IMG/VR virus record: IMGVR_UViG_3300037484_000539
Span: 1-56,743 of that record
DNA: 56,743 nucleotides
Origin: a virus
Strand: one strand, 5' to 3'
Numbering within the stretch: position 1 is the stretch's first letter; the number at the start of each line of letters is the position of its first letter. The notes below the pieces were generated by a model. It was not told where the DNA came from, did no database searches, and saw only the letters and a list, made by a program, of their open reading frames with translations. This document shows positions 2,700-37,763 of the stretch, in pieces. The position numbers and the translations under genes were made by a program.

Positions 2700-3670
2700 T
2701 TCCCCGCCTCCTTCCCGGCAGGCGGTTCGGTGGAGGAGAGGAACGGTCGAATAGCTTCAATCCAATCATTCAATTGCTTGTCATCAATATGATGGTAGCC
2801 ATCGCCGTCGTGGTGTTTGCGCCAGAAGATGCCACCGTAAACCAGATCGAGCGCCTTGACCGCCTCCTCCAGCCTCGCTTCCGCCGCGTCTTTTGCGGCG
2901 CGCAGTTCACGCACTTCCGCCATCGTGGGCGCGTCACAGTCCTCGCACGCCTTTTGAGCGGCTCGGAAGGTTTCGTTTTCCTTGCGCAGTTCCGCATTCA
3001 CAGCGGCCAGATCGCCCTGCATGATTTCGGTATTCGAGAACTTGTCACAGGCATCTTTCAGGCTTGCGATTTCGGCGCGGAGTTGAGAAACTACCTTACC
3101 GGCTTCGATGGCTTTCTTCCATTGCTCCTCGCGCAGCCTCGCCGTGGCGCGCTCCAGCCGTTCCATGATTTTACGTGCCGTGCTTTCCGGGGTGGCGGAG
3201 CGGATGAAAAGATGAATGTCCTCCGCGCAATCCTTCGCCAGCTTCTCGATTTCCGGTTGCGGCGCTGTGAGGCGGGCGAGTTGCTGCTCCTTGTTTTTAA
3301 GTTTATGCAGGAACATTTGCACGGACTGGCCTTGTGCTTTCTGCCAGCCGTAAACCTGAAGCAACTCTGCCAAGTCGTTTTGCTCCTGCTCTAACTCACG
3401 GATGCGCCAGGTGAGTGGTGCTAACTGCTCGCGTAGAATCGCTGCGATTTCTTCAGCTTGGGCGCGAGTTCCGCCAAGATGCGTGACACACGCACACATG
3501 TTGGCAATGCCAGAAAAGTCCACCTCCACCGCTCCCGTCTCCGAGGTGGGGTTGAATACAACTTTCTGGCTTCCGCAGTTCAGGCACAGGGCTACGTTTT
3601 GATCCCAAGTAGTCCAGCCACACTCGCTGCACATTCTTGAAATGACTGGCTGCGTGTTTTGTTCGCTCAT
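2696..3670 (-). CDS. Zinc-ribbon plus long coiled-coil protein
   Basis: Start taken at ATG 3670 (MSEQNTQ). CSECGW...CLNCGS ribbon, then about 250 aa rich in Glu, Ala and Leu heptads. Confidence 0.7.
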   Translation of the reverse strand: MSEQNTQPVISRMCSECGWTTWDQNVALCLNCGSQKVVFNPTSETGAVEVDFSGIANMCACVTHLGGTRAQAEEIAAILREQLAPLTWRIRELEQEQNDLAELLQVYGWQKAQGQSVQMFLHKLKNKEQQLARLTAPQPEIEKLAKDCAEDIHLFIRSATPESTARKIMERLERATARLREEQWKKAIEAGKVVSQLRAEIASLKDACDKFSNTEIMQGDLAAVNAELRKENETFRAAQKACEDCDAPTMAEVRELRAAKDAAEARLEEAVKALDLVYGGIFWRKHHDGDGYHHIDDKQLNDWIEAIRPFLSSTEPPAGKEAGK

Positions 3671-14500: not shown

Positions 14501-17500
14501 ATGCCACTCGATTTAGAGGAATTGTCCGATCTTGATCTGGAGCCGATTGAGGAAGAATCGGAAACTCCTCGTCTGGCGCAAAAGCAGGAACTTCCAGATA
14601 CCAAACCAGCAGTCACAATCGAGCAGACTACCTTTCGGCCACGCACGGCTTCATTGGAGGATACTCGTCCAGCATTCGATTTCGATGAACCTCTGGTCGC
14701 TCCCGAAGCTGTCCGGGCCGCAATGGAACTTGGGCAGGGAGGGATTTCGCGGGCCATCCCACTGCTTCCTGAGGGAATGCGGGAGACAGCGCAGGGCTTC
14801 AAGGAGGGAATTGAGGAGCAGGTGATTGGGCTTACCACGCCAAAATCAGTGGCGATGACCCCGATATTTGCAATTCCCTATGTTGGGCAGGGATTGGCCC
14901 TTGGAATGGGCGCTAAAGCCATAGGCGCTGGAGCAGGAACGGCCACAGGGGCGATTGAATCGGGAAACAGGAGAGAGTTAGGGACTGGACTGAGCGAAGT
15001 CACTGGCGGGGCGGCAATGGTGGCTGCTCCACTGTTACACGGCAGGGCAAAGGTCATTGATATTCCACCCGAAGTCCGAGCCACACTTCCCAAAGCATCC
15101 GCAGCAGTCGAACAAACAACCAAAGGAGCAGAAAGTGCCAAAACAATACGAAGCGATACGGGACAAGTGCGTGAAGAAGGGCGGCAAGCTGAAGTCGTGC
15201 AAGACAAAGGCGGCGAAAATCTACAACAGCCTGCACCCGAACAACCCAAACCCGTGGGCGCACGAGGCGGCGAAGAAGCCCAAGTATTACTGAAGCAGGA
15301 ACTTGCTGCTCCAGATGCGCAAGCTGCGCTCACAAAGCCTGTTGAGCAATTGCGTGTTGAATTAGAATCTAAAAACGCTGAGGCTGACGCACTTCCAAAA
15401 CCAGCCGCCGATGCGCCTATAGCTGACAAAATGGCGTACCTTACGGCCAAGAACAAACTCAAGGGAGAGGCCAGTTTTCTGAGGGAGGCTTTAGAATTGA
15501 AAAAGCAGGAGCGGGTCAAGCCATCTCAAAATGTTATCACGAAGGAAGCACAGCCTGAGCGAGTAGTGGTGCAACCTCCAGAAGATGTTGGTGGAGGAGA
15601 AATGACTCCGGGTTACGTTACGATCCAATCTAAAGGCAACGCACAATCTGGGCCACCCGAAGCATGGAAATCAGCAGGACACGATTTGCCTGAGTTTTCA
15701 AAGCTTCCCAAAGGAACTTATGGAATCAAAGAAGCAAGAGAGCTTGCCCAAAAAGCCCAAGCCCCTGAACTGGCAGCTGAAGGAGTGGGAGGAGTTCCTG
15801 AAAAGCTACCCGCCGCAGAAGCAGCTACTAAAACTGAACCAGTTAGTAGTGAATTAGTAGTTGAGTCTGCACCCGAACGCACTGCTATAGCGCCGGAAAC
15901 AATCAAAGCCGCTGCGGCCCGCAGTGAGGATGGAACGATTTACACCGGAAAATGGCACCCTGCTGCGTATGAAGAACTGATGCGAGCCAAGGGTCTGACC
16001 AAAGATCAGGTCATTGGCCAAATACAAAGCGGTCAGTTAGCTGATGGTTTTATTACGTCTAAAGGAAGATTTGTATCGCGCGAAGAGGCCGCTGTAATAG
16101 CGAAGGAACGCAACCAGTTCCGCCCTGACAAGGAAGGCGATATAGCATTTGCTGGGGGACTCAAGGGAATGGAAGCGGGGCCGGGAGTGGTAGCACCAAA
16201 GCCTGAACTCGCAGAAACGCAAGGTGCCATTGCCACATCCGGGGCACCCATGATGCCAGCTACACCCGCTGGCGTTCCTGCGAAGCCAGTCAAGCCCATT
16301 TCGGAAGTGATACGGGATTTGGCAAAGGGGTTGGACATGCCCATCCGCTTTGGTCGGCTTACCACCAGCAAGTACGCAGGCTACTTCAAAAAGAACCCCA
16401 ATCTCATAGGGGCCAAGTTTGCCAATGACATGCCAATTGTAGCGCATGAAACCGGGCACAAGCTGGATTCCATTTATCCTTTTACGAAAGACCCGGCCTT
16501 GCGGGCTGAATTGGATGCGCTGGGCGATCCTGCGATAGCAGGTTCCAGATCATCGTGGACGCCATCCAAATCCGGCGTTTACAAGCGCGGGGAGGGTTTT
16601 GCTGAATTCGTACGCCATTGGCTGACAGACCCCGCTGAAGCCAAACGTCTAGCGCCTGACACGTTTACCAAGTATGAGCAAATGCTGGATGCCAGCGAAG
16701 ACCTTGGGAATGTGATGCGGCAGGCACAATCCGATATTCAGCTTTGGCGCAACGCCCCACAGGAAGCGCGGCTGGATTCATTTATTTCCAGAAGCGATCC
16801 GAATGGAGCACGTTATCGGCTTCCCAACCTGATGCGTGACGTGGTGGATGATTTACACTTCCTGCGCATGGCGGTGGACGATGCGAAAGTTTCAGGGCCA
16901 CTGCCACCCAGCCAGAATCCATACCAGCTTGCCCGCGCTTTACGGGGAAGCTACGGCATGGCGGACAGTTTCGTGCGTAATGGCGTGGCCGACTTCAAGA
17001 CCCGTGAAGTAACGCCGGGAACCGGCCTTCAGGACGCTTTGAAACCCGTGTCGGGCAGGATTGATGAGTTTCGCAGGTGGATAGTGGCTAAACGCGCCCA
17101 GGAGCTTGCAGCCAACGGTAAGGAGACGGGCCTTAACCCCAACGACGTGGATTTTGTGGCTCAAAAGTATGATACTGACCCCGCTTTTCAGGAAGCCTTC
17201 ACCAAGGTCAAGACATGGAATGATGCCCTGCTCAAGTATGCTGGTGATTCCGGGCTTATTGCTCCTGAGTCCCTGAAGGCCATGCGGGACATGAATCAGG
17301 ACTACGTTCCGTTTCATCGGGTATTCGAGGTGGGGGCTGGAGAATCAGCGGCCCAATCAGGTGGTGCCGGACGAGGATTGAATGTGGGAAAGCCCGGCAG
17401 CCTGAAGCGTTTATCAGGCTCGCAACGGGACATTGTTGACCCATTGGAAACGATGGTCAAAAACGCCTACACGTTGATTACTGCCGCTGAGAAAAACGCC

Positions 17501-19273
17501 ATCAATACCGCCGTGGCCGATCTGGCACCCAAAACCGACATGGGCCGCTGGGTGGAAAAGGTGGCTGCTCCAAAGGAGATGGTGAAGGTTGAACTGGAGC
17601 GCATTAAAAAACAACTGGAGGATGCCGGGGCAGACCTGACGGGGGTTCCAGACGATCTGGTAATGGGGTTTTTCAAGCCTTCTGGCCGTGCTCCATTCGG
17701 CGAAAACATCATCAAAGTAAATCGCGCCGGGAAACAGGAATTCTACCGGCTGGACAAGGATTTGTTCGACACCTTTCATGCGCTGGACATGGAATCGAGC
17801 AGCCGATTGCTCAAGCTATTGTCGGCTCCCGCCCAATTGTTGCGCGCAGGCGTGACGCTGACTCCTGATTTTGCGCTGTCCAATGCGATGAGGGACACGG
17901 TAAGCGCGGCGGTGGTGTCCAAGTACGGCACATACCCATTCGTAAACACCGTGAAGGGAATGGCGGCGCTTTTGAACAATCCCAAGCTGGTGTCGGAATG
18001 GGCGGCTTCAGGTGGAAAACAGTCGGTGGAGGCAAATTATTTTGACCGGGCAAAGGTGCAGAAGTTTTTGTCAGAACGGATTACCAAAGACCTGACACCA
18101 GCGGAGCGGGCCACCATTCTGGCAAAGAGTCCATTGACCGCATTGCGAATGTTCACCGGAACACTGGAGGAGGCGACCCGTATTGGTGAGTATCAGAACG
18201 CGCTAAAAAAGCTGACCGATGAGGGAATGCCAATTGGAGACGCCCGAAGACAGGCGGCATTTGAAGCCCGTGATTTGCAGGACTTTGCCAAGGGTGGCGC
18301 GCAGACCAAAATAGTCCGCAGTCTGGCGGCATTTTGGAATGCTGGATTGCAGGGAAATGTGCGTTTGGCGCAAGCCTTCCGGCAGCGCCCATTTCAAACG
18401 ACGTTGAAGGGTTTGGCATTTATTACGCTCCCCAAACTTCTGGAGCAGGCGGTGAACTGGAACGACGAGGATTATTGGGATCGCCCGCAGTGGGAGAGGG
18501 ACTTATTTTTTATGATTCCCCGTGGAAAGGATGCGAATGGGCATACCAGATTCCTGCGCATCCCAACCCCGTTTGAGGTGGGTGTTATTTTTGGAACAGT
18601 GCCGGGTAGAATTTTGCAAACCGTACGGGAGAAAGACCCAAAGGCTTTGGAATCCCTACCTCGCGTGATGCTTCAGCAAACGATCCCCAACCCAACGCCA
18701 CAATCAGTCCTGACTTTGCTGGAGGTGAATGCCGGAAAGGGGGGTTACTCATTCTTCAGGGGCAGGCCAATTGTGCCGGAAGCCATGAAAAATGCGCCGC
18801 CAGAAATGCAGTTCACATCACAGAACAGCCTGACCGCAAAGAAGGTGGGTAAGTTGCTCAATCTGTCACCAGCCAAGGTGGATTACGCGATTGGAGGATT
18901 GACAGGCGGGGTTGGAAGGCAACTGACTCATCAAGTGTCGGATCGCGCAATATCGGCCATGACGGGTGATGAACGCACGGCCCAAAGCACGATGCCGGGA
19001 GCAAGGTTTGTGGCGACCCCGGCAGGAACCCAAAGCGATGCTGTGGAAAAGTTCTATCAGGCGTTGGAGGAGGCGGTAGCGGACAGGGAGAGAGTGAAGG
19101 CCGGAGAAGCATCCAGGGGACAGGCCAGGTTTGCACGGCGGCTGGAGGCTGTGGCGGACAAGTTATCTGAATTGCGCAAGAAGGCGAAGTTGGAGAAAGA
19201 CGAAAAGCAAAGACAGTCCATCAATCTGGAGATTTCAGCCAGAGCCAGGGACGCGTTGAAACAAATCAAGTAA
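14501..19273 (+). CDS. Giant 1590-aa multidomain protein with a zincin-type HExxH motif; putative virion-borne/ejected polyvalent protein
   Basis: Uninterrupted 4.8-kb ORF. HETGH at 16445-16459, followed by GEGFAEF. The N-terminal third is low-complexity and rich in Ala, Pro and Glu. Confidence 0.6.
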   Translation: MPLDLEELSDLDLEPIEEESETPRLAQKQELPDTKPAVTIEQTTFRPRTASLEDTRPAFDFDEPLVAPEAVRAAMELGQGGISRAIPLLPEGMRETAQGFKEGIEEQVIGLTTPKSVAMTPIFAIPYVGQGLALGMGAKAIGAGAGTATGAIESGNRRELGTGLSEVTGGAAMVAAPLLHGRAKVIDIPPEVRATLPKASAAVEQTTKGAESAKTIRSDTGQVREEGRQAEVVQDKGGENLQQPAPEQPKPVGARGGEEAQVLLKQELAAPDAQAALTKPVEQLRVELESKNAEADALPKPAADAPIADKMAYLTAKNKLKGEASFLREALELKKQERVKPSQNVITKEAQPERVVVQPPEDVGGGEMTPGYVTIQSKGNAQSGPPEAWKSAGHDLPEFSKLPKGTYGIKEARELAQKAQAPELAAEGVGGVPEKLPAAEAATKTEPVSSELVVESAPERTAIAPETIKAAAARSEDGTIYTGKWHPAAYEELMRAKGLTKDQVIGQIQSGQLADGFITSKGRFVSREEAAVIAKERNQFRPDKEGDIAFAGGLKGMEAGPGVVAPKPELAETQGAIATSGAPMMPATPAGVPAKPVKPISEVIRDLAKGLDMPIRFGRLTTSKYAGYFKKNPNLIGAKFANDMPIVAHETGHKLDSIYPFTKDPALRAELDALGDPAIAGSRSSWTPSKSGVYKRGEGFAEFVRHWLTDPAEAKRLAPDTFTKYEQMLDASEDLGNVMRQAQSDIQLWRNAPQEARLDSFISRSDPNGARYRLPNLMRDVVDDLHFLRMAVDDAKVSGPLPPSQNPYQLARALRGSYGMADSFVRNGVADFKTREVTPGTGLQDALKPVSGRIDEFRRWIVAKRAQELAANGKETGLNPNDVDFVAQKYDTDPAFQEAFTKVKTWNDALLKYAGDSGLIAPESLKAMRDMNQDYVPFHRVFEVGAGESAAQSGGAGRGLNVGKPGSLKRLSGSQRDIVDPLETMVKNAYTLITAAEKNAINTAVADLAPKTDMGRWVEKVAAPKEMVKVELERIKKQLEDAGADLTGVPDDLVMGFFKPSGRAPFGENIIKVNRAGKQEFYRLDKDLFDTFHALDMESSSRLLKLLSAPAQLLRAGVTLTPDFALSNAMRDTVSAAVVSKYGTYPFVNTVKGMAALLNNPKLVSEWAASGGKQSVEANYFDRAKVQKFLSERITKDLTPAERATILAKSPLTALRMFTGTLEEATRIGEYQNALKKLTDEGMPIGDARRQAAFEARDLQDFAKGGAQTKIVRSLAAFWNAGLQGNVRLAQAFRQRPFQTTLKGLAFITLPKLLEQAVNWNDEDYWDRPQWERDLFFMIPRGKDANGHTRFLRIPTPFEVGVIFGTVPGRILQTVREKDPKALESLPRVMLQQTIPNPTPQSVLTLLEVNAGKGGYSFFRGRPIVPEAMKNAPPEMQFTSQNSLTAKKVGKLLNLSPAKVDYAIGGLTGGVGRQLTHQVSDRAISAMTGDERTAQSTMPGARFVATPAGTQSDAVEKFYQALEEAVADRERVKAGEASRGQARFARRLEAVADKLSELRKKAKLEKDEKQRQSINLEISARARDALKQIK

Positions 19274-20564: not shown

Positions 20565-22012
20565 TAACACCTTGCCATGTCGGGGACATAGACGCCCTAA
20601 GACAACTGCTTCTTTGGATTCAGAAGCTTGGTGCTTGTAAAGCCCACCAACTGCTTCTTGTGGCGGATGCTGGAACCCCCATAGACAAGGTGGTGGAGGT
20701 AATGGAACTGGCAGGGCAAGTCTTTGGGGAGGTGAGGCTTGTCACCAATCCTACTTCGGTCATTGGGTGGCCGGACGGCTGTTATTCCCTTTTCAACACA
20801 GCCACGAAATACATTTCAGAGCACTGGCCCCAGCCCTTCCTGATTCTGGAACCAGATGCGATCCCCCTTAAACCCGGCTGGCTGGATCAAATCGAGCAAG
20901 CCTACCAGAAATCAGGAACCCCCTTCATGGGATGTATTTACGACGCACCGGGATTCGGTTCCCACGGAAAGTGCATGAGCGGGATAGCAGTGTATCCCCC
21001 AAATGCCGTCACACTCCTTCCTCCATGCCCATTGCCAGTTCCGTGGGACATGTACGGGGCGGACGTAATGACGGGGAATGGTTCCCACACACCCCTCATC
21101 AAACACTTCTTTGGGCAGCACAAACTTCCCCCGACATTTGTGCATGAGAAAAGCGAGTTAGCGCCCATAAATGCTTTCACGCTGGACTGGCTTGGGAGTG
21201 AGTGTGTGCTGTTCCATCGCGACAAGACCCACTCATTGATTCCACTGCTGGCCAGGAAGCTGGGTATTGAATGGCAGCACGCGATTAAGCATGAGCCGGT
21301 GCCAGCCAGCGAAAGGCTCGTGCTGGTTTTAGGGTTTTGCTGGAATGACCAGTATCTCGCCTTGAAAAATCTTTACTGGATGATTCAACTGGGTGGCCGG
21401 GTTGATGGCACGATTGTTTTACAAACTGATATGTCTGTGTCGAAGGAGATTTTCAATACCATTGTGAAGGTGGCGGGCGAAGCGTTTACCCATGTAGTTC
21501 CCAAGCGCCTACCCACTACTACAGTTGGCTGGCCACAGGGTTCCAATATGCTTTGGCAATCTGCTGGGAGGTTCATGGCTTCTTTACAGAAGCCGTGGAT
21601 TTGGAGCGAGCCGGATGCGGTGTTTGTGAAAGAGGGTTGGCTGGAACTATTATCGGATGAATATCTAAGGGCGGACAAACCTTTCATGGGCCACGTTGTC
21701 GGCGGGATGGGGCACATGAATGGGGTTGGTGTTTACCCCGCCGATGTTGGGCGGTTTGCGCCACATGCAATGACCTGCACCAACGCGGCATTTGACATGG
21801 TTTTGCACCCAGCCATCGCACCACATGTCCACAAGGCCAATCATTTGATTCGGCACTGTCGGGCAGCCGTTAATGGGTGTTGTTTGGATCAGCACGGCCA
21901 GCCGCCCGTTTTCAGGAGCGCCGCCGATTTAAGCATGGTGGGAGCCGATACTGTGCTGTTCCACCCAAGCAAAGATGGCTCCTTGATTGATCGGTTAAAC
22001 GAAAAATTATGA
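20555..22012 (+). CDS. Tandem-duplicated two-domain protein; possible glycosyl/nucleotidyl-transferase-like fold
   Basis: The two halves align. GWPDGCYS vs GWPQGSNM; EPDAIPLKPGWL..PFMG vs EPDAVFVKEGWL..PFMG; VLFHRDKTHSLI vs VLFHPSKDGSLI. Confidence 0.45.
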   Translation: MLVVTPCHVGDIDALRQLLLWIQKLGACKAHQLLLVADAGTPIDKVVEVMELAGQVFGEVRLVTNPTSVIGWPDGCYSLFNTATKYISEHWPQPFLILEPDAIPLKPGWLDQIEQAYQKSGTPFMGCIYDAPGFGSHGKCMSGIAVYPPNAVTLLPPCPLPVPWDMYGADVMTGNGSHTPLIKHFFGQHKLPPTFVHEKSELAPINAFTLDWLGSECVLFHRDKTHSLIPLLARKLGIEWQHAIKHEPVPASERLVLVLGFCWNDQYLALKNLYWMIQLGGRVDGTIVLQTDMSVSKEIFNTIVKVAGEAFTHVVPKRLPTTTVGWPQGSNMLWQSAGRFMASLQKPWIWSEPDAVFVKEGWLELLSDEYLRADKPFMGHVVGGMGHMNGVGVYPADVGRFAPHAMTCTNAAFDMVLHPAIAPHVHKANHLIRHCRAAVNGCCLDQHGQPPVFRSAADLSMVGADTVLFHPSKDGSLIDRLNEKL

Positions 22013-23376
22013 ATGCGGAAATTTTGATTGTTACTTTCAAACGGGACTTCAGGTATTTGAAGTTTTGCCTCGAATCAATCCGGCGTTTCGCGACGGGCTT
22101 CAGCGGCATAACGCTGGTCGTGCCTGATTATGATGCAGCACAGGCCGTGTTGGAATTTTCGGGTGTCACCATCAAAAGCGGCGCGGAATGGCCGGATAAT
22201 CCGATGCTCTGGCATGAGTGGGTGATTATGAATGCTGACCAATGGTGCCCCAAGGCTGACTATGTTGTGCATCTGGATGCGGACTGCCTGGTGCGCGCTC
22301 CGGTGAGTCCAGATACATACATTCGTGATGGAAAGCCATATCTGCGTCACGAACCGTTTGCGGATGTGGCAACGCGTGAGCCGGGAGTGATGGAGTGGGA
22401 GCGGGTAACAAGGCTGTGCCTTCCCTTTGAGAACCTGCAAGAGACGATGAGGGCCATGCCGCTGGTGTATCATCGAAGCACTTACCCGCTAACACGCAAG
22501 GTGATGACGCAGAAAACAAAGCGTGATGCCGGGGAATACATCCGCTCCTGCAAGGGAATATACCCACAAGGCTTCTGTGAATTTGTGACGCTGGGAAATG
22601 TGGCCATGAATCTGGAGCGTGAAAAATACGAATGCGTGTTGCAGCTTGGGGACAAGGCCAGTCCGCCGACGAACATCATCCAATTTTGGGGGCATGGCGA
22701 TCCAGCCTTGGAGCAGACGATTTGGATGGATGGAATCAGCCAGATGGTTGTGCCGCAGAACGTCATAAATCAGGTTTTGGAACACAAGTCGCCTGCACTT
22801 ACCGGCAAACGTCCATGCCCGGAAAATATCAAGGTAATCGCCCATCGTGAACAGTTGGGCACTTGGCTTAACGAGCAGGGGATGCTGGGGGCTGGTGCGG
22901 AGATTGGCGTCATGCACGGCGGCTATTCTGAATCCGTTCTGAAAATCTGGAATGGCGAAAAATATTACATGGTGGACTTGTGGGGGAGACAAGACCCGCA
23001 GGTGTATCGGGAGCGCACGGATGACATTGATTACGAAGGCAAGTATCGCGATTGTGTTGCCATAGCGGAACGCTTTCCCATTGTGCAAATCATCAGGGAT
23101 TACTCTGTGGCGGCGGCAGGGCAGGTGCCGGACGGCTCCCTCGATTGGGTGTTCATCGACGCCAACCATTCCTATCGAACTGTCTTAGAAGACATGGATG
23201 CGTGGTTTCCAAAACTTAAACCGGGCGGCGTGTTTGCAGGACACGACTACGGTGACGATACGAACTACCCGCACTGGTGCGAGGTTAAATCAGCGGTGGA
23301 TCGATGGATGGGCGAACACAACATCGCCTTTCGCGTCACGGAATGCTCAAGCTGGTGGTCGATAAAGCCGTTATGA
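22009..23376 (+). CDS. Fusion of a GT-A-like (DxD) N-terminal domain and a class I SAM methyltransferase (Methyltransf_24/TylF-like) C-terminal domain
   Basis: N-terminal half: ILIVTFKRD...VVHLDADCLV. C-terminal half: GAEIGVMHGGYS...FIDANHSYRTVLEDMDAWFPKLKPGGVFAGHDY. Confidence 0.6.
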   Translation: MNAEILIVTFKRDFRYLKFCLESIRRFATGFSGITLVVPDYDAAQAVLEFSGVTIKSGAEWPDNPMLWHEWVIMNADQWCPKADYVVHLDADCLVRAPVSPDTYIRDGKPYLRHEPFADVATREPGVMEWERVTRLCLPFENLQETMRAMPLVYHRSTYPLTRKVMTQKTKRDAGEYIRSCKGIYPQGFCEFVTLGNVAMNLEREKYECVLQLGDKASPPTNIIQFWGHGDPALEQTIWMDGISQMVVPQNVINQVLEHKSPALTGKRPCPENIKVIAHREQLGTWLNEQGMLGAGAEIGVMHGGYSESVLKIWNGEKYYMVDLWGRQDPQVYRERTDDIDYEGKYRDCVAIAERFPIVQIIRDYSVAAAGQVPDGSLDWVFIDANHSYRTVLEDMDAWFPKLKPGGVFAGHDYGDDTNYPHWCEVKSAVDRWMGEHNIAFRVTECSSWWSIKPL

Positions 23377-26109: not shown

Positions 26110-28512
26110 ATGGGGGCGTTGAAGATAAAAGACGCGAGCAAGGTTGAGGAGCTTTGTTGGGCCATGAGGCTCGCCGACCAGCCAAGGTCGGTTGACCGAG
26201 CCTTGATAGACACGCTTTTCAATGGATTCCCTCCCTACACCCAGCATCAGGTTCAGCAGAACAACATCGACGTAAATGTAAATTTTCTTGAACCTACCAA
26301 ACTTGCACAGGACGCCCGCTCCCAGTACGAGACGGCTTACTTCACCCCAAACCAATATTTTCAAGTCCGTGTAGATCGTGGGCCTTCCCATAAGCGGGAC
26401 GAGTGGAGCGAGATAATTACCACTCAATTACGGCGTGCGATGAAGGATGGCCAGTCCGCACAGGTGTATCGAAGACAGAAGTACAGTATTTTCTCCCAGC
26501 TTGTTTTACACGGTTCCGGCCCATTGGTCTGGGGAGACAGGGAGAAGTGGGCACCCACCATGCAGGCGATGGCGGATGTTCTCATACCCAGCCGGACGTT
26601 GCTGACCCTAGAAAACCTGACTCACTTCTCGATCTACCGACGTTACACCGCCGCCGATCTGGCTAGAAAGATAAACGGCCCCAACGTGGACAGGGGTTGG
26701 AAGAAGGAGATTGCCAATAGCTGCATCAGATGGGCGGTAAAGGAATCAGGACAAGCTATTCCCGGTGATGACATGACGTGGAATCAGGAACGGGTGGTGG
26801 CTGACATGAAGGCCAACAGCTTGTTTTATGCTTCTGATGCTGTCCCTACGATCAACTGTTTTGACTTCTACTACTTTGACGAGGAATCCAAAGACGCTGG
26901 ATGGAAGCGAAAGATAGTGTTGGACTCCCCCAGTATAAGTGAAGCCGGAGCCACCAAAGCATCCGTCAAAGAAGCTAAAAACATATTGGAGAAACGAGGC
27001 CAGTACCTCTATGACAGTGGTAGGAACTATGCACCCAAACTCAGCGAGATTATCAACTTCCAGTTCGCGGACGGCTCCGTGGTCGCGCCGAACCGTTACG
27101 ATAGCATTCGATCCCTGGGGTTCCTGCTTTACGCCGTATGTCACTTACAAAACAGGTTACGGTGCTCGCTTACTGCGGCTTCCTTTGAAGCTGCCATGCA
27201 GTATTTCCGAGTTCATAGTCCTGAGGATGTACAACGAGCGATAAGGATCAACCTTGGGAACAAATGCGTCATTCCTGACAATGTTCAATTTGTCGGGGCA
27301 CAGGAGAGATGGAAAGTGGATGCCCAGCTTATCCAGACTGTGATGGGTCTAAACCGCCAGAGCATGGCTGATAATTCCACGGCTTATACCCGAAACTTTG
27401 GACTCAGTGAAAATGAGCCTCGTGAGAAAACAGCCACGCAGATCAACGCGGAAGTAAATGCTGCTACGGCGATGGTCGGGGCGATGCTGGAAACCTCCTA
27501 CGGGGATGCCAAGTTTGAGTACATGGAGGAGTGCCGGAGATTCTGCATTCCCAACAGCAAAGACCCCGATGTAAGAAAATTCAGGCTTAGATGTTTGAAG
27601 GATGGAGTACCCGAAGAAATCCTGAACCCTGAATGCTGGGAGATTTCCGTGGAGCGGGTGATGGGTTCTGGAAATCGGGAGTTAGCCCAAGCCCAAGCGC
27701 AATTGATAATGAGTCAGTACCATTTACTGGAACCGGATGCGCAACGTATTGCTCTGAGGAAGTTCATGTTCGCTGTTACAAACGATGCGGGTGTGACGGA
27801 ATTGTTGGTGCCTCAGAAGCCAAACATGGTTACGGACTCAATCCACGATGCGCAAATGTCCGCTGCTACGATGTTGCTTGGTCTTCCAATGGGGTTGAAG
27901 CAGGGGGTAAGTCACGGAGAATACGCGAGCGTGTTGCTTGGCACCATGAACGTCCAGATTTCCAAAATTGACGGACGTGGAGGGGTTGCAACCGCCGAAG
28001 AAATTACAGGTTTGATGAGTCTGGCCGGTCAGGATGTTGGCGGTCAGCCGTTGATGATGGGAGATCAGCCCGGAAATGGCGCATTTTTCCATATTCAAAT
28101 TCTCAGTCAGGACGCGGGTTCAAAAGAAATTGTCAAACAGCTTGGTGACACCTTAGCTAAGCTGATGAACAGCGTCAGGGCTTACGTTCAAAGATTAGAG
28201 GAGCAGCAGGAGTCGGCACAACAAAACGGAAATGGGCAGCCACCAATAGACCCGGCTTCAGCGGCGAAGATCAAAGGCCAGCTTTTGGCTGCGGAAGTTA
28301 AAGCGGAGAGCATGAGGGAGGCCCATTCCCAAAGGTCTGAGCAGCGCGCCCAAATTCATGCGCAAAATTTGTCTGAACGCCAAGCGGATGCAGAGATGAA
28401 AAACGCACAAGAGGTAAGGAAGACACAGGTGGACGTGGCTGCCAAAGACCTTGTAACGCAGGGGGAAATTCAGCGGATGGCTGCCAAGCCTGACAAACCA
28501 TCCGCTGAATAA
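26110..28512 (+). CDS. Putative portal protein, 800 aa
   Basis: Based on size, position upstream of the scaffold/capsid genes, and a Q/A/E-rich helical C-terminal tail like the P22-type portal barrel. No search was run. Confidence 0.55.
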   Translation: MGALKIKDASKVEELCWAMRLADQPRSVDRALIDTLFNGFPPYTQHQVQQNNIDVNVNFLEPTKLAQDARSQYETAYFTPNQYFQVRVDRGPSHKRDEWSEIITTQLRRAMKDGQSAQVYRRQKYSIFSQLVLHGSGPLVWGDREKWAPTMQAMADVLIPSRTLLTLENLTHFSIYRRYTAADLARKINGPNVDRGWKKEIANSCIRWAVKESGQAIPGDDMTWNQERVVADMKANSLFYASDAVPTINCFDFYYFDEESKDAGWKRKIVLDSPSISEAGATKASVKEAKNILEKRGQYLYDSGRNYAPKLSEIINFQFADGSVVAPNRYDSIRSLGFLLYAVCHLQNRLRCSLTAASFEAAMQYFRVHSPEDVQRAIRINLGNKCVIPDNVQFVGAQERWKVDAQLIQTVMGLNRQSMADNSTAYTRNFGLSENEPREKTATQINAEVNAATAMVGAMLETSYGDAKFEYMEECRRFCIPNSKDPDVRKFRLRCLKDGVPEEILNPECWEISVERVMGSGNRELAQAQAQLIMSQYHLLEPDAQRIALRKFMFAVTNDAGVTELLVPQKPNMVTDSIHDAQMSAATMLLGLPMGLKQGVSHGEYASVLLGTMNVQISKIDGRGGVATAEEITGLMSLAGQDVGGQPLMMGDQPGNGAFFHIQILSQDAGSKEIVKQLGDTLAKLMNSVRAYVQRLEEQQESAQQNGNGQPPIDPASAAKIKGQLLAAEVKAESMREAHSQRSEQRAQIHAQNLSERQADAEMKNAQEVRKTQVDVAAKDLVTQGEIQRMAAKPDKPSAE

Positions 28513-28931
28513 TCCAGCCAATCCCATCCGGTTAATAAGTCTCCCAACCGGCCCGAAACCTTTATGCTCCGCTCCTGCCGTAACAGTACTCACCAATCTT
28601 CACCACTCACTTTGCGTCCTTTCCCCTCCTGCCATTCCGCTCCGGTACGTTCCGTTCCCCACAGTCCGTTATTGTCCTGACCATGCCCGTCGCACCAATC
28701 CTTACCTATCCTGCCGATCCTATACGATCTGCCACGATTTGTTCCGAGACGTTCCGATCCCCGCCTGCCATTCCTGAACCTTCCGTGACGCAACAAACAG
28801 CACCAATCCAATCCTGCCTCTCCGGTATCGTCCGTAACCTGCACACCAATACTTCCTAAACAGCCCTCACCTCTCCTGCCGCTCCGAAGCGCTATCCACC
28901 CGATCCTTTCCGGTACTTACGCATCCTGCCG
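28513..28931. repeat. C-rich, G-poor non-coding spacer with iterated TCCTGCC (6 copies plus 1 CCTGCC) and CACCAAT (4 copies)
   Basis: Lies between convergent genes. CCTGCC starts at 28574, 28628, 28710, 28764, 28813, 28875 and 28925. CACCAAT starts at 28591, 28693, 28801 and 28844. Confidence 0.85.
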
Positions 28932-29762
28932 CTATTCTGTTTCGGAAGCTTGTTCAATATCCTTACCGTGAAGAATGTCACTGATAAGTTGGGGGTCTAT
29001 TTCAGCATCCAGCGCCCAATCAGGTATTGTCAGTGGCACAAGTGGAGCCGCGCATTCTGCTTCGATTGTTCCGATCTCCTTGGCTTCATGGATGTGCCTA
29101 CAAACGCGGAAAGTCCCAAATGTGCCATTCCGCTGCGGCCTCCACTCACCAACCCCGCCTTTTCCAGCGCGGTTCAGCAAGTCCACCACTGTCTGCACCG
29201 AGAGCATATCGCTGAATTCAATAATCATGCGCGCCTTCCAGTTTTGGAACGCGGGACGAAAACGAATATCAGGTGCCCTGTTCATGCCACTTGTGCGCGT
29301 CACGTCCATGCGTGGAATCATCTTGTCAAAGGTGATGGGAATGGAACTGCCCTGCACAAACAGTGAAGTTCGCAGTTGCGTTTTCTTGAACGTTTTGATT
29401 TGGCTGGCTGCGCCAAGCATAGCCTGCTTGAAACAGCTTGGTGAAATGCACACACGTTTGTCCGTGTTGTAAACCGTGGCTTCCTCCAGACATTCGCGGG
29501 GCTTTTTTGGCTCGCGCTGCACCGATATGCCCATGTGCTTTCGCAGCATTTGCTCCACGGATTTCTGGCTGAAGTTGTTTTGTATCAGGTCAGCCGTGCC
29601 CTGAATTTCCAGACACACGCTGAATGTTTTTGGTTGCTGGATCACGAGTGATTTGGCATCAGCAAGAAGCTCTTTAGCTCCATTACGTTTGCTTGCGATG
29701 CGATTGGAGGACGGGAACGTGCGTGCTCCAGCCACTAATTCTGACAGATTTTTGGGTTTCAT
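28932..29762 (-). CDS. Hypothetical phage protein, 276 aa
   Basis: Long ORF containing GKGGVGEWRPQRNGTFGTFRV. It weakly recalls the N4 gp49 / Sf6 gp66 family; this is unverified. Confidence 0.55.
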   Translation of the reverse strand: MKPKNLSELVAGARTFPSSNRIASKRNGAKELLADAKSLVIQQPKTFSVCLEIQGTADLIQNNFSQKSVEQMLRKHMGISVQREPKKPRECLEEATVYNTDKRVCISPSCFKQAMLGAASQIKTFKKTQLRTSLFVQGSSIPITFDKMIPRMDVTRTSGMNRAPDIRFRPAFQNWKARMIIEFSDMLSVQTVVDLLNRAGKGGVGEWRPQRNGTFGTFRVCRHIHEAKEIGTIEAECAAPLVPLTIPDWALDAEIDPQLISDILHGKDIEQASETE

Positions 29763-29804
29763 ATAGTTATGTTGTTTATGGTTGTTGTTTAAGTGGGGCT
29801 GAAA

Positions 29805-30311
29805 TTATTCACCAAGCTGGGTTTCAATTGTTTCGCGCAGCGGCTTGAGTTCCTCAATGTCCACGACCGATTGGCACCACGAGCGAAGGGACGCCTTCTT
29901 CTTTTCGATGATGCCGTTGCGATCCTCGCTGTTCTTGAGCGCGTCGGTGCGCAATTTGAATCCCTCGCCATTGAAGCTGTTGACGAGCTTGCGCACACGG
30001 CAGGACTTGAGCACTTTCATGTGACTGTTTTCCTGCTCAACCAGTTGAACAGTGAAGCGCGAAGAAAGAATCATCGCGTAAGCCTGCATTTTGCGGAACT
30101 TCTCAGCCGCTTCGGCGTCATCCCACTCAAACAGCTTGTGGAGCGGGTGCTGTGTATCACGGGCTTCATTGAGCACCAAATCCACCGTGACGGTTTTGTG
30201 CTTCTTCAACATGCCCTCAAGGGCTGTGTCGATGATGAGTTGTTTTTTCTCGCGCTTGGTTTCGGAACCTAGGTAGCGCACCAGATCGGTTGTGACTGCT
30301 TTTGTTTTCAT
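29805..30311 (-). CDS. Hypothetical protein, 168 aa
   Basis: ATG 30311 lies 33 nt downstream of a minus-strand TTGACA-17-TTTACT promoter. Confidence 0.55.
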   Translation of the reverse strand: MKTKAVTTDLVRYLGSETKREKKQLIIDTALEGMLKKHKTVTVDLVLNEARDTQHPLHKLFEWDDAEAAEKFRKMQAYAMILSSRFTVQLVEQENSHMKVLKSCRVRKLVNSFNGEGFKLRTDALKNSEDRNGIIEKKKASLRSWCQSVVDIEELKPLRETIETQLGE

Positions 30312-30314
30312 GTT

Positions 30315-30349
30315 CTCTTGAGTAAATCAGCATTCCACTTGACTGTCAA
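30315..30349 (-). promoter_or_regulatory. Leftward promoter candidate TTGACA-17-TTTACT
   Basis: Its TTGACA comes from the palindrome CTTGACtGTCAAG, which is shared with the first plus-strand box. Confidence 0.5.
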
Positions 30350-30403
30350 GGAGTATTTCCACTTGACATAAAACAGTGAAAATAGGGTTTTTATCCACTT
30401 GAC
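30333..30403 (+). promoter_or_regulatory. Three tandem boxes: TTCCACTTGAC at 30333 and 30357, ATCCACTTGAC at 30393
   Basis: Read directly. The third copy ends 30 nt before ATG 30434 and has an ATACTT -10-like hexamer after a 17-nt spacer. Confidence 0.7.
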
Positions 30404-30433
30404 TCATAAGGTGGAAAGCGCATACTTCCGGGG

Positions 30434-30661
30434 ATGGATGAACCAATTCAACTCCCCGCCATGAAAAGGCTCTGGCGGGTCAGATTCGCCGATTCATTGG
30501 ACAACCCCAAAATATCCAGCACGGTTCTGGTGAGGGGATCGCAGACCTGTTTTGACGCCATGACGCAGTGCAAGAAATACGAGGGCTGGCAGAACTTTCG
30601 CAAAGCCTATCCTGAAGCGGAGATTGTGGCAGTGGAGTACGGGGGACGAATCGAGAATTAG
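30434..30661 (+). CDS. Hypothetical protein, 75 aa
   Basis: First ORF after the triple box. No SD. Confidence 0.55.
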   Translation: MDEPIQLPAMKRLWRVRFADSLDNPKISSTVLVRGSQTCFDAMTQCKKYEGWQNFRKAYPEAEIVAVEYGGRIEN

Positions 30662-36286: not shown

Positions 36287-37062
36287 TGACCGTCCAGCAA
36301 ATAGTTGATGGTGCGCAGTCCATTTCCTGCTGCATTCCAAAAGGCTTGCAGCAGGCGTCCGTTGTTTACCTCCTGAACCAGATTCTCAGTGGCAACAGCA
36401 GCAATCAGGGTGTCTCCCTATTAGCCAACCTCTACGACCATTGGAGGTTCGATGGTGATACGAACGGGGTGAATGGACATAATTTCACGGTGGTTACTCC
36501 GGTATTTGAGTCAGGAAAGGTAACGGCCAGTGCCATACGGTTTAACATAGCCACCCCGGCTGGGACAGGCACGGCACTCGGAACAGCGGGAGATTTGGTG
36601 CTGACGCAATCGATCAGTTTTGCGTTCTGGTTCAACTTTGCCACTTTCCAAACATCCACCCAGAACAATCTGGTGGGAAATCACGTTGGGCCGGGAACTT
36701 CCGGTGTGAAAATAAGGGGAAGAACTTCTCCAAGCCTTACGATCCAGCAGGCGGGCAGCGTGGTGAATTCCCCAACGGCATTCGTGCTTGGCAATTGGGT
36801 GTTTGTGGCGGGGGGAATTGATTTAATCACACCCACCAGATGGATCACGATTGATGGAGCGGCCAAAACCATAGGTGGAGTGCCCGTCTCCGATGCCACT
36901 CCGGTCAATAACCTTTACATCGGCAAAGACCCGCTTGTGGCCCAGGTGTGCGACATGAGAATGAACAGCTTGTCCATCTGGAGGGGGAAAGTATTGAGCG
37001 CCGCAGATATTGCCTACCTCTACAACGCCGGGGCGGGGCGTAATTATCCTTTCTTTACGTAG
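36286..37062 (+). CDS. LamG/concanavalin-like domain protein; fibre or receptor-binding candidate
   Basis: The N-terminal SCCIPKGLQQASVVYLLNQIL motif, and the C-terminal LSIWRGKVLSAADIAYLYNAGAGRNYPF typical of Laminin_G_3. Confidence 0.6.
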   Translation: MTVQQIVDGAQSISCCIPKGLQQASVVYLLNQILSGNSSNQGVSLLANLYDHWRFDGDTNGVNGHNFTVVTPVFESGKVTASAIRFNIATPAGTGTALGTAGDLVLTQSISFAFWFNFATFQTSTQNNLVGNHVGPGTSGVKIRGRTSPSLTIQQAGSVVNSPTAFVLGNWVFVAGGIDLITPTRWITIDGAAKTIGGVPVSDATPVNNLYIGKDPLVAQVCDMRMNSLSIWRGKVLSAADIAYLYNAGAGRNYPFFT

Positions 37063-37073
37063 GTCATAGCCTA

Positions 37074-37763
37074 ATGTCGGGCATGAGAATTGTTACATTA
37101 CTGCTGGCCCTATCGCTTCCATTGTTCGGTGCTTCCAAGCTGCCCCACCTTTACAACTGCTGGACGTTTGATGACACAGTTTACGGTATCAACACACAGC
37201 CATTCCAGATCACATCACCCGCCTTTGAGCCGGGATTGTTTGGCAATGGATTGAGATGCAATTCCACTCCAGATGCGTCCGGCACGGCTATTGGCACTGT
37301 CACGATGGTTTACACGCAGGACTGGACGGGAATGGTGTGGGTGAATCCGAACATCATCAGCGGCACTCAAACGGTTCTCGATAACGTGACGGGAAGCGGA
37401 GTAAACCGGCGTGGATTCTCATTGCAAATCCAAAGTACCGGGGCGGTGGTTTTGGTAGTGCATGGAGGGGGTTCTGTATTCAATGTGGCTACAAGCATTC
37501 CCATAACATCCGGCACATGGAACTGCGTTCTGTTTGGCTATAACGCCACTACTCTCAAATCATTCATAAGGGTCAATGACGTGCAGACAGATCATCCGGG
37601 AGTTGTCCTTCCCGGTGGAGGCCCGCCCGCCAATCTGCGCATAGGATCGTCATTGGACGGTGTTCTGGATAATCTCGCGTTATGGAAGGGAAAAGTCCTG
37701 ACCGCCACAGAGATGAGTGAACTTTACAACTCAGGAACAGGGGTTGATTATCCATTCCCATGA
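37074..37763 (+). CDS. LamG/concanavalin-like paralog with a signal peptide
   Basis: MSGMRIVTLLLALSLPLFGAS at the N-terminus, and LALWKGKVLTATEMSELYNSGTGVDYPF at the C-terminus. Confidence 0.6.
   Translation: MSGMRIVTLLLALSLPLFGASKLPHLYNCWTFDDTVYGINTQPFQITSPAFEPGLFGNGLRCNSTPDASGTAIGTVTMVYTQDWTGMVWVNPNIISGTQTVLDNVTGSGVNRRGFSLQIQSTGAVVLVVHGGGSVFNVATSIPITSGTWNCVLFGYNATTLKSFIRVNDVQTDHPGVVLPGGGPPANLRIGSSLDGVLDNLALWKGKVLTATEMSELYNSGTGVDYPFP

Follow-up and report, generated by a model that had tools for sequence, protein, structure and literature searches.

A probable VIPR guide-RNA array in the largest gene-free spacer of a soil phage sequence

The virus record IMGVR_UViG_3300037484_000539 of the IMG/VR collection (56,743 nt; the window, analysed over its full length) contains a C-rich, non-coding spacer at positions 28513-28931, placed between an 800-aa open reading frame (ORF) ending at 28512 (plus strand) and a 276-aa ORF ending at 28932 (minus strand). 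Our analyses point to this region being, very probably, the guide-RNA (vrRNA) array of a VIPR (Viral Interference Programmable Repeat) system, together with a vipr gene (28932-29762, minus strand) and a probable accessory gene (29805-30311, minus strand). An unannotated "C-rich spacer" of an uncharacterised soil phage would in that case be the guide array of a system described only in 2026.

VIPR was first described in two preprints (10.64898/2026.04.26.720920 and 10.64898/2026.04.26.720927). According to the former, the system comprises (i) a minimal RAMP protein (Vipr) with an RRM core, a glycine-rich loop and a thumb, (ii) an accessory gene (vap), and (iii) vrRNAs composed of 9-16 YNNGG repeats, which are specified by long intergenic tracts next to vipr. 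Double-stranded DNA is read by the NN dinucleotides, one nucleotide being skipped each time, and competing phages, satellites and prophages are silenced in this way (10.64898/2026.04.26.720920). The same preprint distinguishes seven types, some with NNNGG, YNNNG or NNNNG repeats, and describes arrays that carry tails, arrays that are "staggered" (1-nt overlap) and arrays with intervening hammerhead ribozymes (some of type I/V). Staggered arrays are mentioned there for other types and do not appear in the list of experimentally confirmed architectures (10.64898/2026.04.26.720920). The systems studied in the two preprints are those of type II SUSP1 and P. fulva, and VIPR is proposed to be ancestral to CRISPR RAMPs, with a non-contiguous RNA-guided recognition of DNA. 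Cryo-electron microscopy placed one Vipr protomer on each repeat, G1 being contacted by H17 and D177, G2 by R138 and W178, and Y3 by a pocket lined by R179, which in SUSP1 is reported to exclude purines (10.64898/2026.04.26.720927).

The array is recognisable on the minus strand. Its G residues recur with a period of 4.9 nt (power 5.7, versus 1.36 +/- 0.34 and a maximum of 3.2 in 500 shuffles), and the tract is unique within either strand of the 56.7-kb window (150-nt stretches; 99th percentile 1.26). This 5-nt GG sub-periodicity was missed by the preliminary description of the region. The minus strand is composed of GG-initial pentamers (GGNNN), with an invariant GGCA·GG junction interrupting them at seven places (the point marks the end of a 4-nt step). 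The plus-strand heptamer TCCTGCC is the complement of GGCAGGA, within which GGCA forms one 4-nt step separating two pentamer runs that are in phase. The following elements were distinguished:

28481-28931, minus strand: predicted vrRNA array, about 90 GGNNN-type pentamers with seven GGCA·GG junctions; the only period-4.9 G tract in the window
28881-28930, minus strand: unit 1, 50 nt, begins GGCAGGA
28819-28880, minus strand: unit 2, 62 nt, phase slips inside
28770-28818, minus strand: unit 3, 49 nt, GGCA plus 9 pentamers
28716-28769, minus strand: unit 4, 54 nt, GGCA plus 10 pentamers; junction GGCAGGC instead of GGCAGGA
28634-28715, minus strand: unit 5, 82 nt, two additional 4-nt steps
28580-28633, minus strand: unit 6, 54 nt, GGCA plus 10 pentamers
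28500-28579, minus strand: unit 7, terminal, 3' boundary approximate

The 3' end of the array is uncertain and may overlap the antisense of the 800-aa ORF by approximately 30 nt.

A repeat logo based on 23 units, drawn from the window as well as from two close relatives, has GG at positions -20, -15, -10 and -5, and again at +4, +9, +14 and +19, around the invariant GGCAGG. Position 3 of the pentamer is semi-conserved, mostly A and almost never G (30 A, 7 T, 4 C and 3 G in the window), and positions 4-5 are hypervariable (about 0 bits). The spacing between cores, which in the region amounts to 50, 62, 49, 54, 82 and 54 nt, equals 4 modulo 5 in 12 of the 22 units of the window clade (P=3e-4) and in 15/18, 13/15, 9/10, 7/7 and 6/6 units of other loci. 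Each unit would therefore be made up of n pentamers, the last of which (GGCAG) shares one G with the first pentamer of the next unit (GGANN). With lengths of 49-82 nt, the window units correspond to about 9-16 pentamers; unit sizes of 8-17 pentamers agree with the 9-16 of the published systems, and in-phase runs over all Vipr-linked arrays peak at 9-11 pentamers.

The plus strand of 28513-28931 contains 172 C, 104 T, 81 A and 62 G (41% C, 15% G). Its C-richness and the TCCTGCC, CACCAAT and CCGGTA "iterons" singled out by the preliminary description arise because this strand is the complement of the predicted minus-strand RNA code. The counts made there held: 23 C and 7 G in 28561-28620, and 25 C and 10 G in 28621-28680, were exact on recount; CCTGCC occurs seven times at exactly the positions given, six of them as TCCTGCC (mean 0.43 and maximum 6 in 20,000 composition-preserving shuffles); CACCAAT occurs four times (mean 0.05 in the same shuffles, the observed number never being reached) and CCGGTA[CT] three times. 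All copies of the three motifs are in a single orientation, with zero reverse-complement copies. On the RNA strand CACCAAT (28591, 28693, 28801 and 28844) reads ATTGGTG, and two of its four copies coincide with extra 4-nt "GGTG" steps; it could be a second junction type, or merely repeated guide dinucleotides.

The region was also correctly described as the largest gene-free stretch, since in a crude ORF map of the window the ORF-free gap of 419 nt is followed by one of 254 nt. Neither six-frame translation nor codon-phase composition revealed a credible gene in it; recoded stops were also considered, but stop codons occur in every frame. We agree with the earlier view of the single ORF located here:

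28590-28844, minus strand: 84-aa ORF rich in Gly and Arg, not a gene but a by-product of the G-rich repeats; no Pfam or PHROG match; other frames contain stops

BLASTN of the region against INPHARED phages gave no match, and Tandem Repeats Finder reported nothing in the window, because the repeat copies are too divergent. Across the window no Rfam family, hammerhead ribozymes included, reached the gathering threshold; for 28300-30500, searched at E<=1, the only match was a spurious one to a miRNA, again with no hammerhead. The predicted structure of the G-rich RNA shows no excess over shuffles (z -0.58).

Directly upstream of the array lie two genes of the same strand:

28932-29762, minus strand: vipr gene, encoding a 276-aa RAMP-fold (Cas7-like) protein, a Vipr homologue; directly upstream of the array
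29805-30311, minus strand: candidate vipr-accessory (vap-like) gene, 168 aa, first gene of a two-gene operon; phrog_15946 homologues (function unknown)

A family profile of the 276-aa protein, comprising 38 homologues, matched one solved structure in the PDB, 36pp_D, "SUSP1 Vipr protein" (E=9.7e-5). The aligned segment runs from RFRPSF to GVGEWRP in the 276-aa family and from SYRPIF to GVGDWRP in SUSP1 Vipr. The SUSP1 residues R138, D177, W178 and R179 correspond to R169, E206, W207 and R208, all invariant in the 38 homologues; SUSP1 H17 falls outside the aligned segment. When the AF2 model of the protein (pLDDT 79.5) was compared with the PDB using Foldseek, the top 50 matches were all Cas7-family RAMPs (Cmr4, Csm3, type VII Cas7 and gRAMP; E from 9e-7 to 3e-4). 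A protein search identified 283 homologues at E<=1e-5, and no named protein occurs among the best 120 of these 283. The proteins of the locus (Vipr, the vap-like protein and the 800-aa protein) have no Pfam or NCBIfam cas match; other cas genes were not seen, no dedicated cas search having been run. The only PADLOC match, for the 800-aa ORF, was a sub-threshold one to JetA (E=0.025).

The 168-aa gene is probably the VIPR accessory gene, judging from its genomic neighbourhood. This gene and its homologues accompany Vipr homologues in the window and at least 16 of 27 related loci, in a permuted gene order (vap-vipr-array, vipr-array-vap or vipr-vap-array), and across related loci vipr, the 168-aa-type gene and the array are always on the same strand. 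The AF2 model of the protein is mostly helical (pLDDT 74.5), and profile comparison with the PDB, NCBIfam, PADLOC and Foldseek were all uninformative about it.

Using the 276-aa protein as a query, five IMG/VR loci (L001-L005) and four distinct metagenome or genome contexts, represented by five loci (L006-L010), were retrieved. Every one of them carries a G-rich period-5 tract on the vipr sense strand. The arrays differ in size, repeat and position:

L005: 18 units, about 1.05 kb, (GGCNN)n punctuated by GGCAATCACGGCAGGC
L002: GGC/NN, several units
L006 / L007: 12 GGCAGGA units within 720 nt
L008: 6 units
L009: 910 nt, GGCAGCA cores
L004: array one gene further downstream
L003: array upstream of vipr instead

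In L001, L002, L004 and L005 the genes on the two sides of the array run in the same direction, and the G-rich strand is therefore transcribed there; the convergent arrangement of the window is found in L006 and L009. Several of the loci L001-L005 carry two or three separate period-5 arrays, on both sides of vipr (in L002 at 1551-1725, 2226-2475 and 3226-3525).

The linkage of array and gene was also recovered from DNA. A scan of IMG/VR for three GGCAGGA cores spaced 48-65 nt, using no protein information, returned 119 stretches, most of which are unrelated repeats lacking the period-5 signal. Among the G-skewed stretches with a period-5 power of at least 4, a Vipr homologue (27-38% identity) was present in 13 of 14 fetched loci, versus 3 of 105 for the remaining stretches. 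Where a Vipr homologue is present, the array hit by the scan lies downstream of vipr and on the same strand in 15 of 16 loci, and upstream on the same strand in the other. GGCAGGA triplets without either the period-5 signal or a Vipr gene were seen in GVMAG giant-virus contigs (L029, L030, L051, L060, L075, L082 and L083) and in many other scan loci; these are presumably unrelated, possibly coding repeats, and composition together with period-5 power cleanly separates the vrRNA arrays from them. The base at position 3 varies by lineage, being A-rich in the window, L024, L089 and L096, C in L005 and in Mycobacterium phage Donkeykong, and T-rich in L093.

In Donkeykong (Cluster F) and in L007 the tract equivalent to the array appears to have been mis-called as a protein-coding sequence (CDS). 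Donkeykong gp48 (CDS 36870-37256, "hypothetical protein") is an array of GGC/NN pentamers joined at GGCA·GG junctions, with a period-4.9 power of 12.4:

L130 2051-2475 (NC_051648.1, about 36866-37290): Donkeykong array

From its sequence gp48 looks like a mis-annotated guide array. The adjoining gp49 is homologous to the window Vipr (29% identity, E 3e-17) and gp50 to the 168-aa protein, and the neighbourhood contains repressor, antirepressor and excisionase genes. With tblastn, Vipr homologues were found in 33 phage records (27 of Mycobacterium, five of Gordonia and one cyanophage), among which the array was inspected in Donkeykong only.

Comparison of the window with L006 and L008 shows that the arrays turn over much faster than the vipr gene: vipr is 73-77% identical at the nucleotide level, whereas the arrays are 45-61% identical, and a single clearly homologous unit is common to all three. 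No guide of the window matches the window itself above shuffled guides. Exact scans of IMG/VR with the one-nucleotide skip returned 0 and 0 matches for two window guides of 20 specified bases, and 0 matches for one guide of L006. For the guide of window unit 3 (18 specified bases) there was a single exact match, TTcTTcGCgTTaGCgACcAGcCAcAT, at 193-218 of L131 (IMGVR_UViG_3300027908_000005, a 71.5-kb contig); one such match is about the chance expectation by a rough estimate that assumes a collection of about 1e11 bases, and the skipped bases fall at the wobble position only within a short 56-aa frame. In a local search of 133 parsed guides against 2.4 Mb of fetched loci, matches at >=85% of NN positions were obtained for 17 real versus 12 shuffled guides, i.e. 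without excess; at >=90% there were four real guides versus 0 shuffled, each of the four being short, with 16-18 specified bases. A match of 17/20 between a window guide and L005 was judged to be due to chance, its skipped bases falling at codon position 2.

By analogy with the type II SUSP1 and P. fulva systems of the preprints, from which ribonucleoprotein formation, the one-nucleotide-skip code and the silencing function are carried over, the element may be pictured as working in the following manner. The minus strand would be transcribed, most simply by read-through of the vap-like/vipr operon (30311 to 28932), and the transcript would give rise to about seven RNAs of about 50-80 nt, each with 9-16 pentamers of the form G1 G2 (A>Y)3 N4 N5 and bounded by GGCA·GG, where the overlap of two pentamers by one G would make the array a "staggered" one. 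One 276-aa Vipr protomer would bind per pentamer, its G-loop and thumb residues sequestering GG(+1) and exposing N4N5. The joined NN dinucleotides would pair with the DNA target, every third base being skipped, and the resulting filament would block transcription of a competing phage, satellite or prophage.

Several observations weigh against assigning the locus to VIPR. The similarity to the sole solved Vipr is confined to about 60 residues (E~1e-4), and the rest of the case for homology comes from a predicted fold (TM of about 0.4-0.5). Position 3 of the window pentamers is mostly A, though the SUSP1 pocket is reported to exclude purines, and the window array is comparatively degenerate, 55 of its 97 parsed pentamers being GG-initial. 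The 5n-1 rule is broken by three of six window units. In the 23-unit logo only GGCAGG(A) is invariant, and there is no invariant 3' tail of about 40 nt and no pseudoknot. A scan for minus-strand promoter or terminator consensus sequences found none, the 168-aa protein has no recognisable DNA-binding fold (nor did Foldseek of its AF2 model return a fold match in the PDB), and no natural target emerged from the exact IMG/VR scans of three window guides and one L006 guide.

The preliminary description had offered three readings of the region, which are partly supported by these results. One of them was a Rho-utilisation (rut) zone: C-rich, unstructured plus-strand RNA, read through from the 800-aa gene, would load Rho and end the rightward late transcript before it enters vipr in antisense. 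The plus strand has the appropriate composition (41% C, 15% G), the RNA predicted from it has less structure than shuffles (z +1.94), the terminator scan gave no intrinsic terminator, and the convergent arrangement recurs in L006 and L009. In L001, L002, L004, L005 and most loci of the DNA scan, however, the array sits between co-directional genes with the G-rich strand as the sense strand, where C-rich RNA is normally not made, and the GG pentamer register, the invariant GGCA·GG, the 5n-1 spacing and the linkage to a RAMP gene are left unexplained. We therefore regard a rut zone as an improbable reason for the existence of the element; in convergent genomes the complementary C-rich strand might provide an extra Rho-dependent stop for late transcription, which may at best be a secondary consequence. 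Another reading was an array of double-stranded DNA iterons (pac, a replication origin or a partition centromere) bound by a phage DNA-binding protein, and seven same-orientation 7-mers at about five helical turns in the largest non-coding stretch are what such an array could look like. The spacings, however, differ by half-turns of about 5 nt (49, 54, 58, 63), obeying the 5n-1 rule and not helical phasing; the strands are strongly asymmetric in purine and G content, a 5-nt sub-repeat runs throughout the "spacers", the sequence between cores is hypervariable between close relatives, there is no AT-rich unwinding element, and the arrays of other phages lie in early or immunity regions, as in Donkeykong. 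Binding by a protein remains the most likely fate of the repeats, but as RNA bound by the neighbouring Vipr; double-stranded iterons appear very improbable.

The third reading, a non-coding RNA, came closest, as a minus-strand RNA; the G-quadruplex-like structure attached to it finds no support here, and folding is no better than in shuffles. The CsrB repeat is CAGGA(U/A/C)G, which GGCAGGA(N)G resembles. A G-rich regulatory RNA of another kind, such as a CsrA/RsmA-type GGA sponge or a quadruplex-forming RNA or DNA, could draw on this likeness, on the many GGA motifs of the minus strand and on the formal ability of G2N3 repeats to form two-tier quadruplexes. Homologous arrays in L002, L005 and Donkeykong are, however, GGC-based with almost no GGA, the motifs do not lie in hairpin loops, there is no Rfam match, and neither the hypervariable N4N5 nor the linked RAMP protein would have a role, which makes such an RNA the most improbable of the explanations weighed here. 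A TRAP-like wrap of 11 x 5 nt, a CsrA sponge, a Chi-site array, an R-loop or switch-region-like origin, a sponge based on Shine-Dalgarno (SD)/anti-SD pairing and a cold-shock Y-box (ATTGG) were considered and dropped, as they leave the linked RAMP protein unexplained; most of these ideas also fail in relatives with GGC repeats.

Beyond the assignment to VIPR, we tentatively raise the possibility, itself rather doubtful, that the window belongs to a Vipr clade with a modified repeat code, in which A occupies the protein-held position 3, the guides are bounded only by the 4-nt GGCA step, and a structured tail is lacking. Such a code, if true, would call for a differently shaped pocket for base 3 and possibly a different skip rule, and for a processing or measuring mechanism for "staggered" arrays.

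At the far end of the array, a further element was noted:

28468-28510, no strand assigned: inverted repeat, 13 bp and perfect, 17-nt loop; spans the stop codon of the 800-aa ORF and lies at the array 3' end; missed by the terminator scan

It is possibly a bidirectional hairpin serving the two convergent transcripts, although it has no U-tract. The 800-aa ORF itself had been labelled "portal-like", for which PHROGs, Pfam, NCBIfam and PDB sequences gave no support, the ORF matching neither a family nor a PDB entry; a search for related loci with this protein retrieved zero relatives. L009 (GCA_040384205.1, JAWVGZ010000417.1; 3914-4984 and 1-1207) shares the synteny of the window, with a 788-aa ORF convergent on its array; it also carries an IS605 OrfB/TnpB-like gene and a gene of the adenylosuccinate synthetase family (PF00709), possibly resembling PurZ, which would hint at modified bases in the genome. 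Elsewhere in the window, a 1590-aa ORF (14501-19273, plus strand) contains an LPD38 "large polyvalent protein" domain (E 4.5e-35) and a 455-aa ORF (22009-23376, plus strand) a Methyltransf_24 domain. Among 20 ORFs that were scanned, 10 of them also against PHROGs, most have no Pfam match and just two have a PHROG match, to a family of unknown function; with so few family matches, the phage lineage is evidently poorly charted.

The VIPR assignment would add a divergent clade of 276-aa Vipr proteins that is widespread in soil phage contigs, and natural diversity in the base at repeat position 3 (A, C or T by lineage), combined with a GGCA·GG junction conserved from the window phage to mycobacteriophages. 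Arrays mis-annotated as protein genes would be present in Cluster F mycobacteriophages, which are cultured and genetically tractable and hence convenient for testing both the processing of staggered arrays and the variant with a purine at position 3. For genome annotation, a period-5 GG tract beside a small RAMP-fold gene would be a simple and specific detector.

Among known systems, VIPR, with the type II system of Escherichia phage SUSP1 as its reference, is the closest counterpart. Shared with it are a minimal, phage-encoded locus with a RAMP-fold protein that has a conserved G-loop (D/E-W-R) and thumb arginine; an adjoining long "intergenic" tract of tandem pentamers, with conserved GG and hypervariable NN, on the vipr strand; arrays of several units with 9-16 repeats each; another small conserved gene; and the absence of self-targets. 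The window protein is, however, longer than SUSP1 Vipr (276 aa versus 202 aa) and only weakly similar in sequence, its accessory protein has no recognisable WH, HTH or HNH fold, and position 3 is mostly A and not a pyrimidine, which fits the "related consensus/NNNGG" class and not a strict GGY. The window also lacks the invariant, pseudoknotted 3' tail of about 40 nt that follows each repeat tract in type II, and its array is therefore not built in the type II style; its units abut through GGCA·GG with a 1-nt overlap, which looks like the "staggered arrays" of the preprint, as judged from its wording. In Cluster F mycobacteriophage Donkeykong (gp48-gp49-gp50, NC_051648.1) the same three components are present, array junctions included, but the array is upstream of vipr, the repeat is a canonical GGC (61 C, 1 A and 1 T at position 3), and all three are annotated as hypothetical proteins. 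The backbone of Class 1 CRISPR-Cas complexes (Cas7/Csm3/Cmr4 on crRNA) resembles the proposed system in that a RAMP protomer sits on the guide at a fixed period with a thumb that flips bases, and in that the guide array adjoins the protein gene and changes its content quickly; the window locus differs in having no CRISPR repeats or spacers, and VIPR in having a period of 5 nt (three sequestered, two read) versus 6 nt (five read) and a non-contiguous guide. The (G/U)AG repeats bound by TRAP and the GGA repeats of CsrB are likewise short purine motifs on one RNA strand (about 5 nt for TRAP, many copies in CsrB) recognised by an oligomeric protein; unlike the array of the window, they sequester a regulator, have no variable "code" positions and are not linked to a RAMP protein.

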